38,430 bases of DNA, from positions 1 through 38,430 of the IMG/VR virus record IMGVR_UViG_2778261428_000003, one strand, 5' to 3'. This document shows, piece after piece, positions 22,241 through 38,430 of the stretch (position 1 is its first letter; each line of letters starts with the position of its first letter). The notes below the pieces were generated by a model. It was given only the letters and a program-made list of their open reading frames with translations. It searched no databases and had not been told where the DNA came from. The DNA is from a virus (lineage: Duplodnaviria > Heunggongvirae > Uroviricota > Caudoviricetes). A program made the position numbers and the translations under genes.

Positions 22241-23269
22241 ATGGCTACACTGGACGCATTCAGTAGAGTAATAACTCATCATACTATTACGATCGATACA
22301 CAATACCGTACACAGAAAATTGATGATAGCATCAGATCGAACTGTGTTTGCCCAGTACCAACAATGCGTGAACTTGCTTCTAAAATAGTACATTGTAAAG
22401 CAATGATGCACAGTTATGAAAAAGGAGACTTAGTTTTAACTTTACAAGATGTAATATTCTTATCAAACAGAGCCGATAAAAAACCCAGCCATCTTGGTCT
22501 TTTAATTAATGCTGTAGATAAAAATGGAAGCACTACTGTATTAAAAAACATTAATACAGATGTTCGCACCGAAATATCACCAAAACATGAGGAAGGTGAA
22601 GGTTACGAAGTTTCTTCTCATATGATTATTTCTCTAGACGGAAACATGCGAACATATGACATGAGTTTTATGCCAATACCAGGAGTTTCCACAGCAAAAA
22701 TAAATGGTTTCCTGAATAAAGTTCTCTTTAACGTAGCCAAAGATAATGAAGATATCTTTTCATGTAACACTTTAACAAATGAAGTATCAAGTTTAACAAA
22801 GAAAAAAATAAAAGTATTATACAAGCCAGTCTTTGATATATCTGGAAAGTTAGATGAAGATTTGTTCAATAAAATAAATAAAGAAGGACTTTCTGATGTC
22901 GTTTTGGTAAAGAATGAATACAGAACTATTAATGCGCCAGATGTTAACGCGGCTATTATTCCTAAAGAAAGTACTTTACGCTTAGTACCAAACCATGGCC
23001 CCAACAATGTCCTTGGATGGATAAAATCTGTCTCAAACTTCTTTAAAGAAGATAAAAATGGAGGTTATGACTTAATAAAAATAAAATTCAAAGAGCCAGA
23101 GACAGGATTCACAAGACAAGTTGACCTTCAAACTTCAAATGTAAGGCTGGATGGGCTGGAAAAAACATTTATCAAAAAGAGTGTAATAAATGGTTTTTCT
23201 TCGCGCTTAAAGGATTCTTATGATAGTATTAACATGGAGTTTGTGAATAAGATTATCGAGGTCATGTGA
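22241..23269 (+). CDS. Hypothetical 342-aa soluble protein, component A of a candidate exclusion/abortive-infection cassette
   Basis: Long ORF in markedly AT-rich DNA, opposite strand to the late operon; no recognised catalytic motif; weak local resemblance to RexA (…PGVSTAKINGFL… vs RexA …GPTTSDLTDFL…). Confidence 0.6.
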   Translation: MATLDAFSRVITHHTITIDTQYRTQKIDDSIRSNCVCPVPTMRELASKIVHCKAMMHSYEKGDLVLTLQDVIFLSNRADKKPSHLGLLINAVDKNGSTTVLKNINTDVRTEISPKHEEGEGYEVSSHMIISLDGNMRTYDMSFMPIPGVSTAKINGFLNKVLFNVAKDNEDIFSCNTLTNEVSSLTKKKIKVLYKPVFDISGKLDEDLFNKINKEGLSDVVLVKNEYRTINAPDVNAAIIPKESTLRLVPNHGPNNVLGWIKSVSNFFKEDKNGGYDLIKIKFKEPETGFTRQVDLQTSNVRLDGLEKTFIKKSVINGFSSRLKDSYDSINMEFVNKIIEVM

Positions 23270-23276
23270 GGCTAAT

Positions 23277-23852
23277 ATGATTAGTATATTTTCACATTTA
23301 TTTAGACCGTTTGGTTACCTTTTCATTAAGGGAATTAGTGGTAAGTGCGCATACGATTTTTATGCACCTGCCGGGCTTGCTGTGATTTCTTTTTTTTACT
23401 TTTATTTATTTAAAATACCTACATCAGACCTACTAAAAGATGGCGGCTTTATTAAGTCTATATCTGGATTTGTATCAAATCTGCCAGGTTTTTATATAGC
23501 AGCTCTTGCAGCAATAGCCACTTTCAACAGAGAACAAATTGACTACCCTCTGATAGGAACTAATGGCACTCCTTTTATTAAAATTACACGAACAAAAGAA
23601 AATGGTAGAATTGTTGACACTCAAGAGAAACTTACCAGAAGATTATTTCTGTGCATGTTATTTTCATTTTTAACTGCCCTCAGCATATGCATAGTGATTT
23701 TCAACGCTTTTATCACACCACTAATAAACATACTGAATAATGATATAGCAAACTGGTGCTATATCATTATCTTTTTATTCCTTACATGGCAAATGCTTGT
23801 TTCAACATTTTTTGGACTATACTATCTTGGTGATAGGATTCACATTAATTAA
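23277..23852 (+). CDS. Hypothetical 191-aa four-TM inner-membrane protein, component B
   Basis: Four hydrophobic segments (about aa 29-45, 62-83, 123-149, 160-184); GAGG Shine-Dalgarno; 7-nt gap from component A. Confidence 0.65.
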   Translation: MISIFSHLFRPFGYLFIKGISGKCAYDFYAPAGLAVISFFYFYLFKIPTSDLLKDGGFIKSISGFVSNLPGFYIAALAAIATFNREQIDYPLIGTNGTPFIKITRTKENGRIVDTQEKLTRRLFLCMLFSFLTALSICIVIFNAFITPLINILNNDIANWCYIIIFLFLTWQMLVSTFFGLYYLGDRIHIN

Positions 23853-34089: not shown

Positions 34090-34709
34090 TGACCACATTT
34101 ACCGATAAAGAACTGATTAAAGAAATCAAAGAGCGTATCAGCAGCCTAGAGGTTCGAGACGATATTGAGCGCCGTGCTTATGAAATTGCTCTGGCATCGC
34201 TGGAAGAGGAGCCGGTGGCATGGCTACATTCAGACAATGGCTTAGGTATTCCAGCAATAACCAGGAGTAAAAACATTGCTGACAGTTGGTTATCAAAGGG
34301 CTGGTATGTTCAGCCGCTATATATAGCCAAGCCAGTGCCGGTGGTGCCAGATGCTCGTCCGTCTTTAAATAATGGCATAGTCGGTTTTGATGAAGGCTGG
34401 AACGCCTGCCGCGCCACCATGCTTCACGGTGTCAAACCTGTAAGCCAGACTTACAAGTTGAACAAGCTGTCTGGCAACTCTCCGGTAACTCCGGATGGTT
34501 GGATAAGCTGTAGTGAGCGAATGCCGAACGATAAACAATATGTTTGGTGTTGGGGTAAGTCTTACGGCTGGACTGAGTGCGATACCTTCGAAGGGTATTA
34601 CGATTGTTCGAGAAACAAATGGTGGGCAGTTACTGACAATGGGGAAGAACCGGCATCGAAAGTAACCCACTGGATGCCGCTACCGGAACCGACGCAGGAG
34701 GTGAAGTAA
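34089..34709 (+). CDS. DUF551-domain prophage protein (YfdT-like)
   Basis: Trp-rich C-terminus ending ...HWMPLPEP typical of DUF551. Confidence 0.55.
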   Translation: MTTFTDKELIKEIKERISSLEVRDDIERRAYEIALASLEEEPVAWLHSDNGLGIPAITRSKNIADSWLSKGWYVQPLYIAKPVPVVPDARPSLNNGIVGFDEGWNACRATMLHGVKPVSQTYKLNKLSGNSPVTPDGWISCSERMPNDKQYVWCWGKSYGWTECDTFEGYYDCSRNKWWAVTDNGEEPASKVTHWMPLPEPTQEVK

Positions 34710-34903
34710 TGAACAACTTAATGACAACTAAACAAGTCGCCGACTTCTGTGGCGTTTCAGTATCGACAGTTCTTCGCTGGAACAGCGTAAACCGGAGAAC
34801 TGGCCAGAAATACAGACCTGATTTTCCAGATCCTGATATTAAATCATGCCCAAATAAATGGGCGTCACGCAAGATTTACAGGTTTGCAGGAGTTATTGAA
34901 TGA
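34709..34903 (+). CDS. Excisionase / AlpA-like HTH regulator
   Basis: 64 aa, TTKQVADFCGVSVSTVLRW helix-turn-helix, upstream of integrase. Confidence 0.6.
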   Translation: MNNLMTTKQVADFCGVSVSTVLRWNSVNRRTGQKYRPDFPDPDIKSCPNKWASRKIYRFAGVIE

Positions 34904-35443
34904 CGTATGTGAACAGACACGTCTATGGCACGGTCAGCGTCTGTCTGAGCGATACAGGCACGGACGTTGCTATCCACAAGCATTAATTATCAGGAAACTG
35001 GGACCGCTCCCCAAGCATGATGTATTGAAACGAAGACATTTACACAATGATAGAAAAAATACTAAAATAATGATTCAACTCAAAGAGTTGATGTACATAA
35101 AATGCCTCACCGGCATAGGTGAACATTTTCATGGGTGGGGAAAAACATGATGTGGACCACACTTCCCCCTCTAAAAAGAGGGGAAAGAGTATGGTTTTGT
35201 TGTACACTAAAGGCCATATGGTTTTTTATTATGTTTGGATAAGATAAATGAATGTAATAGCATTTAATGAAATAGAATCTAGCATCGCCGCCAATGATCA
35301 GGTTGATTCTATCTGCATTGAATTAACAACATTTAATCAAGATAATGTCATTTCATTTGAAAGTAAAAAGAAAAATAAATAAATTCTTGATGCATTTTTT
35401 GAAATAATAAATACTGATATAGTTTTCGACTAGGTAATTAGCA

Positions 35444-37039
35444 ATGGCTGAAGCAGCAAAAAAAACTCCACAAAAGCTGAATGAAAAAAAAGGCTCAACA
35501 TCAGCATCATCACTTGAGATTGTGAATTCACGACAATCAAAAGATATTTATCTTGGATTGTGTGGATATGTTGGATGTGGCATGAGAACGATAAACAAAA
35601 TTATCGAAGAGATATCCAAAGAATGGGGGTATAATGTTGTACACATCCGCATAAGTGCGCTTATGGAAAACCCATTATATTTTGAGCCAGCAGCACTGGA
35701 GGTATCCGAAAGCACACAAGTTAATAGACATTTAAAACTCCAGGATATTGCCAATAAGCTTCGTAAACATTACAAAAAAAATGAGTTGCTTGCAGAAGCT
35801 GCTATTGCAGCAATCGCAGCAGAGAAAAATAATATTGATTATAATAATGATGAATATAAAGGTACTGTCTTCATCATTGATCAATTCAAAAGGCCGGAAG
35901 AAATAGAGTTATTCAGAGTTATATATCAGCATAATTTCTATTTATTAGGAGTTTTGCGCGATTTAGATTACCGAATTCCGAATCTCATTGCTGACGAATC
36001 GACAAAGGACGACCTTCATTTAATTATCAATATTGATAATAAATCCTCTGATCCGTATGGACAAAGAACCGGGGAAACCATTCTTGATTCAGATTTTTTT
36101 ATTAAAAATAACTTCAGCCAAAAAAGTGAATTAAAGAAGAAGATTGATCGGTTTTTCGGTCTTATTCATGGCAAAAATGGTTTAACACCAACTTTTAACG
36201 AGAAAGGTATGTATGCTGCCTTTTCAACATCATTACAATCAGCTTGTTTATCACGTCAAGTAGGGGCTGCACTGTTTGATGATGAAGGGAATTTGCTTGC
36301 CGTGGGTAAGAACGACGTACCTAAAGCTGGTGGCGGGTTGTATAGCAGTGATGATTTTGATAACGATCATCGATGCGTTCACAAAAGTGGTAAGTGTTAT
36401 AATGATGCAAACAAGCTAAAAATTAAAGACCGTATAAAAAGCATATTATCAACCGAAGTAAGAAATGTATTAGGTATTTCCGCAGGACAAACTGTTGCCG
36501 ATATTAATATAACACGACTTCTAAACAAATTAGATAATATTGCAGAAGGCATTTACAAAGACAGCAAAATATCAAGTGTAATGGAGTATTCCAGATCAAT
36601 TCATGCTGAAATGGACGTCATTACATCAATGGCTAGAAAACAAAACGGCGATACTAAAGATAAAATTCTTTTTACGACAACCTATCCCTGCCACAACTGT
36701 GCAAGGCATATTGTCGCAGCTGGAATAAAAAAAGTAGTATATATAGAGCCATTTGATAAAAGCCTTGCTCTTGATCTGCATAATGATGCAATAACAAAGA
36801 ACGAAGAATCATCCAAAGTAATATTTTGTGATTTTGAGGGGGTATCACCCCGCCGCTACCATAAATTTTTCAGACCAACGGATGAACGTAAAGATGATAA
36901 AACAGGGACTGCAAATAAATTTAATGCTCGCTACAAAAATCATATAGATGTTCAATATCTTGATGATTATAGAAAGTATGAGACTGTTGTAGCTAAGAAA
37001 TTTATAAACGAGATTGCTAAACCAGAGTCTCAGCCATAA
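35444..37039 (+). CDS. avcD: AvcD-like antiphage deaminase: N-terminal P-loop-like domain fused to C-terminal cytidine/dCMP deaminase domain
   Basis: Zinc-dependent deaminase signature H-A-E (aa 387-389, SIHAEMDVI) and P-C-x-x-C (aa 415-419, TYPCHNCARH); Gly-rich loop GLCGYVGCGMRT at aa 38-49; 531 aa; AT-rich; between xis and int. Confidence 0.8.
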   Translation: MAEAAKKTPQKLNEKKGSTSASSLEIVNSRQSKDIYLGLCGYVGCGMRTINKIIEEISKEWGYNVVHIRISALMENPLYFEPAALEVSESTQVNRHLKLQDIANKLRKHYKKNELLAEAAIAAIAAEKNNIDYNNDEYKGTVFIIDQFKRPEEIELFRVIYQHNFYLLGVLRDLDYRIPNLIADESTKDDLHLIINIDNKSSDPYGQRTGETILDSDFFIKNNFSQKSELKKKIDRFFGLIHGKNGLTPTFNEKGMYAAFSTSLQSACLSRQVGAALFDDEGNLLAVGKNDVPKAGGGLYSSDDFDNDHRCVHKSGKCYNDANKLKIKDRIKSILSTEVRNVLGISAGQTVADINITRLLNKLDNIAEGIYKDSKISSVMEYSRSIHAEMDVITSMARKQNGDTKDKILFTTTYPCHNCARHIVAAGIKKVVYIEPFDKSLALDLHNDAITKNEESSKVIFCDFEGVSPRRYHKFFRPTDERKDDKTGTANKFNARYKNHIDVQYLDDYRKYETVVAKKFINEIAKPESQP

Positions 37040-37045
37040 CTGTTT

Positions 37046-37086
37046 CCACTCCTTATTTCTGTAAGGATAAGGAGTGGTATTTTTAT
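37046..37086 (+). terminator. Rho-independent terminator after the deaminase gene
   Basis: ccactcctta ... taaggagtgg 10-bp stem followed by TATTTTTAT. Confidence 0.6.
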
Positions 37087-37191
37087 AAGTATAATGACTG
37101 CCTCTTCATAAATCAGCAAATCGAAATATCAGCAACCAGTTAATTATAATCCAAGAATCATTACTATTTTCTTACTCTGTATGTCCATTCA

Positions 37192-38430
37192 TTATTCAAT
37201 AGGCTGTCTGTTGGAACCTAAATTAGTGTAAGTAAGAATCGAATCAACCCTATCCCACCATGCCTGATAGGCTTTACGCTGTTCTTCTAGATAATCACTC
37301 TTATCATAAACTTGCCATACCCCTGGCAGTTTATGACCGAGCATTATTTCAGCAATATGAGGCGCAGTAAGATCAGAAAAGTTTGTTCGTGCTGTTCGTC
37401 TCAAATCATGAAGAGACCAATGAGGAAATTGATACCCCAAACGCCGCCATGCGTACTGCATTAAATTGTAAGGCAGCGACTGCAATGATGTCCGACCAAC
37501 TGGCTCCTTGCTTCCTTCCTTGGTAAAAAGCATATCGGAACCGTTGTTCATAGAGATAACGTATTTTATAAGCTCTTCAACCGGTTCAATAATGGGGCGC
37601 TTTAGCGGTTCGCCTGTTATATCACCTGTCTTATGTCGTTCTGGCGGTACAGTCCATACCTTATTAATGAAATCAAAATCATCCACCCTGGCAGTAATCA
37701 GCTCTGAACTACGACAGCCGAAATGCAGCAATAGTTTAATGAAGGCCCGGTATTTGGGAACCATTCGAGAACCATCGATCGCAGCATAAAGAATTTTAAT
37801 TTCATCGTGTGTCAGAAACCGTTTCTTCTGACCTTTACGGATATCCATATCTTTACCCGTGATGTCCGACAGCGGGCGAGTTTCAATAAACTTTCGCTTA
37901 TACGCCCAGACATGGGCCTGCTTTGCGTTAATTAGCAATCGGTCTGCTATTGCCGGAGTCTTAGTGCTAAGAGGCTCCAGGACCTCTAACCAATCATGCA
38001 ATGTAGCTGCATCATGAGGGATACTCCCGATTTTAGAGAACAGATGCAGTTCAAATGAGCGGAGTATCTGCTCAGAACCTTTTTTATTTTTTACACAATA
38101 TGCTTCATACCAGGCACGGATCACAGACTCTACCGTCATGGCTTCAGTAGCTTTGCGTTTTTCTGCCTGCCTGACCAATCGTGGATTGCGGTTTGACTCA
38201 AGTTCACCACGAAGACGGATAACTTCTTCTCTGGCCTCTTTTAATCCAGTTGCCGGGTAAGTTCCGATATCAAGTCGCTCGCCTTTCCCTGCCCATTGAT
38301 AACGATATTGGAACACTACGCGACCTTTCGGTGATACTCTGACAGACAGACCATCACGATCTGATTTAACCAAAACCTTATCGCGTTCCTTTCCAACGAC
38401 TGAACGCAACCACGCATCAGACAGCGCCAT
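37192..38430 (-). CDS. int: Tyrosine integrase, P4-type (N-terminal arm-binding DUF4102-like domain)
   Basis: 412 aa; C-terminal HDLRRT ... LGH ... Y catalytic motifs; ATG is the last three bases of the window. Confidence 0.9.
   Translation of the reverse strand: MALSDAWLRSVVGKERDKVLVKSDRDGLSVRVSPKGRVVFQYRYQWAGKGERLDIGTYPATGLKEAREEVIRLRGELESNRNPRLVRQAEKRKATEAMTVESVIRAWYEAYCVKNKKGSEQILRSFELHLFSKIGSIPHDAATLHDWLEVLEPLSTKTPAIADRLLINAKQAHVWAYKRKFIETRPLSDITGKDMDIRKGQKKRFLTHDEIKILYAAIDGSRMVPKYRAFIKLLLHFGCRSSELITARVDDFDFINKVWTVPPERHKTGDITGEPLKRPIIEPVEELIKYVISMNNGSDMLFTKEGSKEPVGRTSLQSLPYNLMQYAWRRLGYQFPHWSLHDLRRTARTNFSDLTAPHIAEIMLGHKLPGVWQVYDKSDYLEEQRKAYQAWWDRVDSILTYTNLGSNRQPIE

Follow-up and report, generated by a model that had tools for sequence, protein, structure and literature searches.

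A prophage-borne AvcID cassette with a putative avcI RNA antitoxin that probably also encodes a small protein

The window, by which we mean the whole 38,430-nt stretch of DNA analyzed here, carries an avcI-avcD cassette beside an integrase gene. The region under study, positions 35150 to 35443, lies directly upstream of avcD. The features of the cassette and its leader are listed below by position in the window.

35039-35068, plus strand: candidate sigma-70 promoter of avcI-avcD (TTTACA, 18-nt spacer, TAAAAT; 10/12 matches)
35136-35160, plus strand: conserved block GGGGAAAAACATGATGTGGACCACA, the 5' edge of the core common to cassette copies (8/8 aligned contexts)
35154-35197, plus strand: leader stem-loop with an imperfect extended stem (minimum free energy [MFE] fold; inverted repeat I4; core 35167-35173 / 35178-35184)
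35248-35433, plus strand: avcI, a 186-nt element corresponding to a 61-codon ORF, presumed RNA antitoxin and small-protein mRNA, interrupted here by TAA at 35380-35382
35262-35323, plus strand: predicted RNA hairpin in the 5' half of avcI, pairing 35262-35269 with 35316-35323 and 35272-35279 with 35305-35312 (RNAalifold)
35380, plus strand: private G-to-T substitution changing codon 45 from GAA to TAA (comparison with close loci)
35431-35443, plus strand: avcI stop codon TAG overlapping an AGG Shine-Dalgarno-like motif, followed by a 10-nt spacer to the avcD ATG
35444-37039, plus strand: avcD, anti-phage dCTP/dCMP deaminase toxin of 531 aa (PADLOC, Pfam, NCBIfam, PGAP)
37046-37077, plus strand: intrinsic terminator closing the cassette (13-bp stem, then a T-run)

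The avcD product matched the PADLOC dCTPase at 2.7e-164 over residues 10 to 529, Pfam dCMP_cyt_deam_1 at 7e-15, and the NCBIfam equivalog NF041025 (antiphage_deaminase) with 464.5 bits against a cutoff of 400. Its N-terminal P-loop kinase-like domain is fused to a dCMP/dCTP deaminase domain bearing the HAE and PCxxC zinc motifs, and H387-A388-E389 and P415-C416...C419 are invariant in the AvcD alignment. PGAP names the product "anti-phage dCTP deaminase" in 49 E. coli genomes, and the PDB holds no solved AvcD structure. The initial annotation had called this gene a deaminase and pointed to described AvcID systems, and the PADLOC and NCBIfam assignments bear this out.

The integrase gene (37192-38430, minus strand) adjoins the cassette, and yjjG/rimI lie beside it in related genomes. 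Over positions 35000-37200 (2201 nt), E. coli O111:H8 SF4-1 is identical to the window except at one base. All that a nucleotide search with the region returned was near-identical copies from E. coli (49 genomes with identities of 95% or more), H10407 not being among them, and a nucleotide search of the isolated-phage collection gave no match to the region. Copies of the cassette occupy different mobile elements, lying by a P4-like primase gene, by a P2 GPA-like replication gene, or beside an integrase gene. The AvcID system is known, and the window locus is a further ETEC-type AvcID copy on an E. coli prophage.

Region 35150-35443 had been described as AT-rich and free of ORFs, and its composition was confirmed at 29.6% GC versus 50.3% for the whole window. 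The deaminase gene has a GC fraction of 0.353 versus 0.296 in this region. Only 0.6% of all 294-nt windows are equally AT-rich, the others coming from one further low-GC island around 22.6 kb. The ORF list likewise contains no ORF of at least 60 aa in the region on either strand. The longest plus-strand ORFs there are of 44 aa (35248-35382), 42 aa, and 35 aa, and the minus-strand ORFs, of 55 and 36 aa, lie mostly upstream of 35207. The region looks gene-free because one recent G-to-T change, G35380T, cut a 61-codon ORF. Among the sequences compared, having no 60-aa ORF here is peculiar to the window's sequence.

G35380T is the sole difference from SF4-1 over the 2201 nt aligned. Codon 45 is GAA in all 17 of the close loci that carry the flanking sequence, and the 61-codon ORF is intact there. 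It is also intact in three directly aligned close relatives and in Budvicia and Morganella, even where PGAP does not annotate it. A missing PGAP "hypothetical protein" label was considered as a sign of a broken ORF and was rejected, since 13TMH22 and CFSAN061770 are unlabelled and carry the ORF intact. One NCBI assembly, GCA_002512515.1, contained the 44-aa product, and avcD is intact there; the truncated ORF also accompanies an intact avcD in two Logan assemblies and one metagenome contig. By translation, the nonsense allele drops the conserved C-terminal 17 residues of the putative peptide and changes one base of the RNA. The G-to-U change could itself impair the avcI RNA. Because the full-length avcI stop overlaps the Shine-Dalgarno motif of avcD, the premature stop may also reduce AvcD translation.

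The arrangement of the locus is that of AvcID systems: an element of about 150 to 300 nt lies directly 5' of avcD in the same orientation, and a terminator scan predicted no terminator between avcI and avcD. The gap between the two genes is 10 nt throughout the window clade. On plasmid p58 of ETEC H10407, a 61-codon ORF (positions 2618-2803 of locus L003) ends 12 nt before avcD, and four other diverged E. coli avcD loci have an ORF of 60 to 62 codons in the same place. In position, strand, and size the window's element also agrees with the validated avcI of V. parahaemolyticus. An hhalign comparison of the window-clade and ETEC-clade profiles aligned residues 28-61 with residues 28-61 colinearly (E = 1e-4, with a probability of only 57%) and reached the shared terminal ...I-x-(F/L)-D. 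When the window ORF was compared with the ETEC ORF by pairwise BLASTP, the similarity fell short of significance (E = 0.79), and the window region had no nucleotide match to ETEC avcI. The HMM of the family whose peptides end in Trp scored 11.7 bits against the window clade, in a match limited to NQDNVISFESKKKNKE; none of 500 shuffles scored as high. The plus strand and the core span, which the initial annotation had left open, can be assigned to avcI because of the orientation and position given in the literature and the colinear profile match to the H10407 ORF. We conclude from these comparisons that 35248-35433 on the plus strand is the avcI of the window's cassette. The initial annotation had proposed an AvcI-like small RNA in this region; in position the region does correspond to experimentally validated avcI loci, and by the profile match it probably does so in sequence, while the reasoning from an absence of ORFs to a small RNA does not, the locus being a conserved 61-codon ORF under protein-level purifying selection.

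The presence of the small ORF was followed in 118 collected AvcD loci, and it was scored as present when an ORF of 49 to 102 codons on the same strand ended 8 to 106 nt before avcD. Among 58 loci with an AvcD identity to the window's of 37% or more, 52 had such an ORF (54 after correction of two mis-assigned avcD starts), the most frequent length there being 61 codons; among more distant loci the ORF was found in only 3 of 49. The encoded peptides share the motif NV(V/I)xF, a stretch rich in Lys, Arg, and Glu, and then A-x3-(I/L/V)(I/L/V)-x2-A-x-K-(L/I)-x-W-stop. An amphipathic helix leads up to this Trp-stop, which in the window clade is replaced by Asp-stop. The motif holds across loci whose upstream GC content runs from 27% to 50%.

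Conservation of this ORF is specific to its reading frame. Over the last 30 codons of 36 nonredundant ORFs, codon positions 1, 2, and 3 carried 10.9, 17.4, and 9.6 bits of information, and the third positions of conserved alanine codons were near-random. When the same nucleotides were read in frame, the mean BLOSUM62 score per site was +1.23, versus -0.68 and -0.61 in the shifted frames; the reverse-strand frames scored from -0.08 to -0.81 per site and contained 14 to 40 stops. No in-frame stop occurred in 29 x 50 codons, versus 168 and 84 in the other frames. The zero follows in part from the way the ORFs were selected, a limitation that does not touch the similarity score. Of the 36 ORFs, 22 have a Shine-Dalgarno motif of 4 nt or more in front of them, versus 7% of background windows. 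In the window clade, the dN/dS ratio (Nei-Gojobori) was 0.18 to 0.36 for the small ORF versus 0.07 to 0.09 for avcD in pairs with unsaturated dS. Amino-acid identity in this clade was higher than in simulations that relocated the substitutions at random (P = 0.0002 to 0.007), and the ORF stayed open in the most distant clade member in only 5% of those simulations. The codon-position asymmetry inside the window clade taken alone is weak (26:19:35, p = 0.09).

Pfam and NCBIfam contain no family covering the small peptides. A profile search of 1.8 billion representatives found 13 proteins, all of 41 to 81 aa. Seven of these that were new were inspected, and six have the motif; the other, P0056, is an ETEC-type ORF with a disrupted C terminus. 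The AlphaFold2 model of the peptide has low confidence (pLDDT 52) and contains a C-terminal helix only. The retention of the ORF, its frame-specific conservation, the dN/dS values, and the Shine-Dalgarno motifs point to a frame kept by selection, which a purely noncoding small RNA would lack. By these comparisons avcI is also a conserved gene of about 60 codons, one that is probably translated. We found no mention of protein-level conservation of avcI in the AvcID literature searched.

In that literature, AvcI is described as a noncoding RNA from 2021 through a 2025 review. The V. cholerae antitoxin (DifV/AvcI) has a minimal active RNA of 152 to 174 nt, is 20 to 60 times more abundant, and acts after translation. 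The homologues of ETEC H10407, P. mirabilis, and V. parahaemolyticus were described as a small ORF 5' of dcdV, each inhibiting its cognate enzyme, and no sequence similarity was reported among the three small ORFs. The avcI gene lies directly 5' of avcD in the same orientation, its reverse complement having been used only as a probe; in V. parahaemolyticus there is no terminator between the two genes. The avcI transcript is just under 300 nt long. The published primers for the V. parahaemolyticus avcI probe are ATGGTTACAAATTTAAATG ... CAGAAAATTCGTTGGTAA, and their ends can be read as the ends of an ORF, from M-V-T-N-L-N to Q-K-I-R-W-stop (ATG...CAG AAA ATT CGT TGG TAA). Cross-inhibition between AvcID systems is clade-specific, and phage protection through depletion of dCTP and dCMP has been shown for the Vibrio and ETEC homologues only. 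The coding signal found here conflicts with the "noncoding" label without contradicting the RNA experiments.

One reading of the coding signal is that the small protein is the sole antitoxin or regulator of AvcD and that the RNA findings are secondary, in which case the window copy would be null and its AvcD unchecked or poorly expressed. The strong frame-specific conservation of the peptide, the frequent Shine-Dalgarno sites, and the lack of an RNA motif common to the families agree with this. So does the loss of V. cholerae AvcI activity upon removal of the last 4 nt, a cut that would hit the stop codon and part of the Trp codon if that ORF ends as it does in V. parahaemolyticus. Against it, published V. 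cholerae constructs with the start codon changed to a stop or without the ribosome-binding site stay active, and the avcI transcript decays and AvcD is activated after rifampicin and not after the translation inhibitor spectinomycin; decay also follows infection with T5 or T7. Moreover, the intact 531-aa avcD stands beside a truncated ORF in the window genome, in the two Logan assemblies, and in the metagenome contig. We therefore consider a peptide acting alone unlikely. The nonsense mutation removes the peptide's helix and leaves the RNA almost unchanged, so a host could keep an intact avcD. Such a combination of intact avcD and truncated ORF fits an RNA antitoxin with a peptide that is dispensable for viability.

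At the RNA level, the predicted hairpin at 35262-35323 is paired in 98.8% of cells across 10 distinct sequences of the window clade. It contains three compensatory pairs, all from the L049 lineage and produced by nonsynonymous substitutions, and at three stem positions a change on one side has given a wobble pair. The observed score was reached by just 2 of 500 shuffles, and slid controls were 32 to 39% paired. The avcI span as a whole folds no more stably than shuffled sequence (z = -0.06). Synonymous divergence was 0.37 to 0.52 in avcI versus 0.57 to 0.73 in the adjacent avcD, which is a weak hint of an extra nucleotide-level constraint on avcI. Neither the window region nor the validated ETEC avcI gave more than subthreshold noise when scanned against Rfam, which has no AvcI family. 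Matches to a covariance model of the clade hairpin were confined to the window clade, with none in other AvcI families, and RNAalifold returned no consensus structure for a codon-anchored alignment of 29 families, whose individual MFE z-scores were heterogeneous (mean, -1.0). A search of viral contigs for V. parahaemolyticus avcI by the published primer ends gave chance matches only.

Upstream of avcI, sequence from about 35136 onward is common to all eight aligned cassette copies, and five of the eight share sequence as far as about 35018. The shared core contains the GGGGAAAAACATGATGTGGACCACA block, the hairpin, TTTTGTnGTAnAnT, and, upstream of the ATG, TTTTTATTATGTTTGGAT. The number of A residues in the GGGGAAAAACATGATGTGGACCACA block differs in the distant relative L049, so its conservation is at the level of nucleotides and not of an overlapping 88-aa ORF. 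That ORF (34884-35150) was considered as the cause of the conserved upstream block and was rejected, because the L049 indel breaks its frame. The GC hairpin noted in the initial annotation is present, with CCCCTCT (35167-35173) pairing with AGAGGGG (35178-35184) around a 4-nt loop. It does sit at the 5' edge of the region, as was noted; this is, however, about 64 nt upstream of the avcI core and outside it. Conservation of the leader hairpin extends to Budvicia, Morganella, and metagenomic relatives; in L049 the stem persists although its bases differ. Some E. coli strains have IS insertions just 3' of the hairpin, at about 35193. The hairpin could serve as a 5' stabilizer, an attenuator, or an insulator against prophage read-through.

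The candidate promoter at 35039-35068 is the best promoter-like site in 34600-37400; the number of promoter-like sites in that interval is no higher than in shuffled sequence, and none stands out. The block is kept in five of eight cassette copies in different mobile elements and absent in three, so the site is no more than a candidate. A sigma-70 promoter between the hairpin and avcI was also considered; inspection by eye gave weak candidates (TACACT/TAGAAT, TATTAT) with no usable -35 element, and the idea was rejected.

This conserved leader and its hairpin are typical of cis-regulation, and they raise the possibility that the region is just the promoter and 5' untranslated leader of the deaminase gene, yielding no product that acts in trans, with the ORF tuning avcD translation by coupling. 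The overlap of the avcI stop with the avcD Shine-Dalgarno motif, the 10-nt spacer, and the absence of a terminator are what coupling would look like. An ORF that served coupling alone would, however, need no conserved amino-acid sequence, and the gap to avcD ranges from 8 to 106 nt among the families. In addition, when the ETEC small-ORF region was supplied on a separate plasmid, it inhibited its deaminase in trans (Hsueh et al. 2022; bioRxiv 10.1101/2021.03.31.437871). A purely cis-acting region is thus quite improbable. It is very improbable that the regulator is instead a minus-strand RNA of 35150-35443 with the hairpin at 35154-35197 as its terminator or 3' end, since, although the hairpin in particular makes the minus strand more stable than its shuffles (z = -2.85), the region has no minus-strand promoter-like site, the minus-strand hairpin is followed by no T-run, the literature places avcI in the orientation of avcD, and frame-specific conservation sits on the plus strand, with the reverse frames scoring negative and containing stops.

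The explanation that we favor, with a probability of about three in four, is that 35150-35443 forms the regulatory and antitoxin part of an AvcID cassette carried by a prophage, in which the avcI RNA inhibits AvcD and probably also encodes a small protein. In the cassette, avcI follows a conserved leader that bears a stem-loop, and avcD begins 10 nt after avcI. If it behaves like its counterparts in V. cholerae, V. parahaemolyticus, and ETEC, avcI would be transcribed on the plus strand together with avcD. As in the characterized systems, its RNA would be abundant yet labile and would bind the AvcD protein and block it. An infecting phage that shuts off host transcription would let the avcI RNA decay, and the AvcD so released would deaminate dCTP and dCMP and starve phage DNA replication. 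The avcI transcript would then be a dual-function RNA.

A further proposal, to which we give even odds, is that, throughout the gammaproteobacterial-type AvcID clade that includes V. parahaemolyticus and ETEC, the avcI RNA doubles as the message for a conserved peptide of some 60 aa with its own role in the control of AvcD. Such a peptide would have the NVVxF motif, a run of basic residues, and, at its C terminus, an amphipathic helix whose last residue is Trp or Asp. Under the dual-function reading, its role could be that of a co-inhibitor, of an assembly factor, or of a phage sensor, among others.

The closest characterized relative is the AvcID system of ETEC p58, whose AvcD is about 62% identical in amino acids to that of the window. 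In both, a 61-codon ORF on the same strand ends 10 to 12 nt before avcD with ...I(I/V)(L/F)D-stop. The ETEC system defends against phage, and its small-ORF region inhibits the cognate deaminase. It is carried on a small mobilizable plasmid, whereas the window copy lies in the chromosome, where it occupies the integrase end of a prophage. The two cannot be aligned over the N-terminal 27 codons or at the nucleotide level, the conserved leader and its hairpin occur in the window clade alone, and the premature stop belongs to the window's ORF. The Vibrio systems (V. cholerae VSP-I and V. parahaemolyticus) share the architecture of avcI 5' of avcD, and the mechanism is presumed to be the same, with cotranscription, a labile RNA, posttranslational inhibition, and activation by transcription shut-off. 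The V. parahaemolyticus ORF, MVTNLN...QKIRW-stop, fits the peptide motif of 29 nonredundant loci, and the window clade differs from the Vibrio systems in ending with Asp rather than Trp.

AvcID also resembles ToxIN-type type III toxin-antitoxin systems, in which an RNA antitoxin directly upstream inhibits the protein toxin and transcription shut-off by phage activates the system. The window locus is nevertheless not of the classical type III kind, which has tandem repeats processed by an endoribonuclease toxin. No tandem or multicopy direct repeats were found in 34900-35600, which covers the antitoxin region, and there is no terminator between antitoxin and toxin. Its toxin is a deaminase and not an endoribonuclease that processes the antitoxin, and its antitoxin region is an ORF under protein-level selection. 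Dual-function small RNAs that encode small proteins include SgrS/SgrT and RNAIII/delta-hemolysin, which act by base pairing with mRNAs. The avcI transcript would be like these in combining a regulatory RNA and a conserved small ORF in one short transcript; it differs in that AvcI is reported to bind a protein and in that its translation is putative.

For annotation the locus has practical value, since PGAP gives a name to the deaminase alone and avcI often goes unannotated. If the proposed role of the peptide is true, AvcID would be a three-component system built on a dual-function RNA, and should the peptide prove real, present models of the restraint and release of AvcD are incomplete. The window would then be a natural knockout of the peptide in which the RNA is nearly intact, an allele that separates the RNA from the peptide.

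The leader, the avcI ORF (the presumed RNA antitoxin gene), and avcD (the anti-phage deaminase gene) recur together as a cassette. At collected loci L126, L127, and L129/L130, which lie on Enterobacter and metagenomic contigs, the neighbors of this leader-avcI-avcD cassette are a P4-like primase (D5_N/Toprim), an integrase, and a P2 GPA-type replication gene. The cassette travels as one unit among satellites and prophages. A block at its 5' edge, GGGGAAAAACATGATGTGGACCACA, is kept in every cassette copy, irrespective of the surrounding mobile element. This block may serve as an operator or promoter element, or the transcript's 5' end may lie there. The features discussed here are as follows.

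34709-34903, + strand: 64-aa ORF whose start (MNNLMTTKQVADFCGVSVSTVLRW...) resembles the helix-turn-helix of AlpA/excisionase proteins
35136-35160: conserved block GGGGAAAAACATGATGTGGACCACA, 5' edge of the core common to cassette copies
35431-35446: avcI stop codon TAG, which overlaps a Shine-Dalgarno-like AGG; the avcD ATG follows after a 10-nt spacer
Within 22241-23852, + strand: two ORFs of 342 aa and 191 aa, a PADLOC candidate defense pair
~35193 (IS1A) and ~36850 in avcD (IS421): sites of insertion in IS-bearing cassettes of E. coli OkiPb strains, 08-00022, and N96

In several E. coli genomes, IS1A lies directly 3' of the leader hairpin, and therefore the match to the region in those genomes begins at 35193. 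IS421 likewise lies within avcD in several E. coli genomes, so that the match ends at avcD nucleotide 1407. The avcI-avcD cassette is undergoing inactivation in some E. coli lineages.

Upstream of AvcD proteins less than 37% identical to that of the window (e.g., L035 to L037, L041, and L042), the small avcI ORF is generally missing. Several of these loci have instead an upstream ORF of 110 to 170 aa that, by eye, has a helix-turn-helix or ParB-like DNA-binding look. Different deaminase clades may be restrained by different means. The 64-aa ORF upstream of the window cassette has a weak PADLOC match to mad1 (5.5e-4). The PGAP annotation of the close relative SF4-1 is without a counterpart of this ORF, and the related genome GB089 has in this vicinity only a pseudogene labeled "DNA-binding protein."

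A second low-GC island (34 to 36% GC versus ~54% in the flanks) occupies 22241-23852. Since its two ORFs match PDC-M53A (2e-31) and PDC-M53B (1.7e-54), the prophage probably carries a second defense cassette there besides avcI-avcD.

At the avcI-avcD junction, the 10-nt spacing from the AGG motif and avcI stop to the avcD ATG is invariant throughout the clade. The overlap and fixed spacing suggest that avcD is translationally coupled to avcI.

A G-to-T nonsense substitution in avcI at 35380 is private to the window sequence and is the sole difference from SF4-1 over 2,201 nt. The resulting 44-aa product is present in one NCBI assembly, GCA_002512515.1. Further ORF-disrupting variants were seen in L133 and L134 (Logan assemblies), L136 (metagenome), and L132/L135/L138, including a T-run frameshift (52 aa) and an A-run frameshift (53 aa); some adjoin an intact avcD. 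Several may be sequencing errors, because their source assemblies are low coverage or error prone and avcD is fragmented there too. If avcI and avcD are coupled, ending avcI translation early at 35380 would break that link. The 35380 substitution represents a natural allele that separates the avcI peptide from the RNA.
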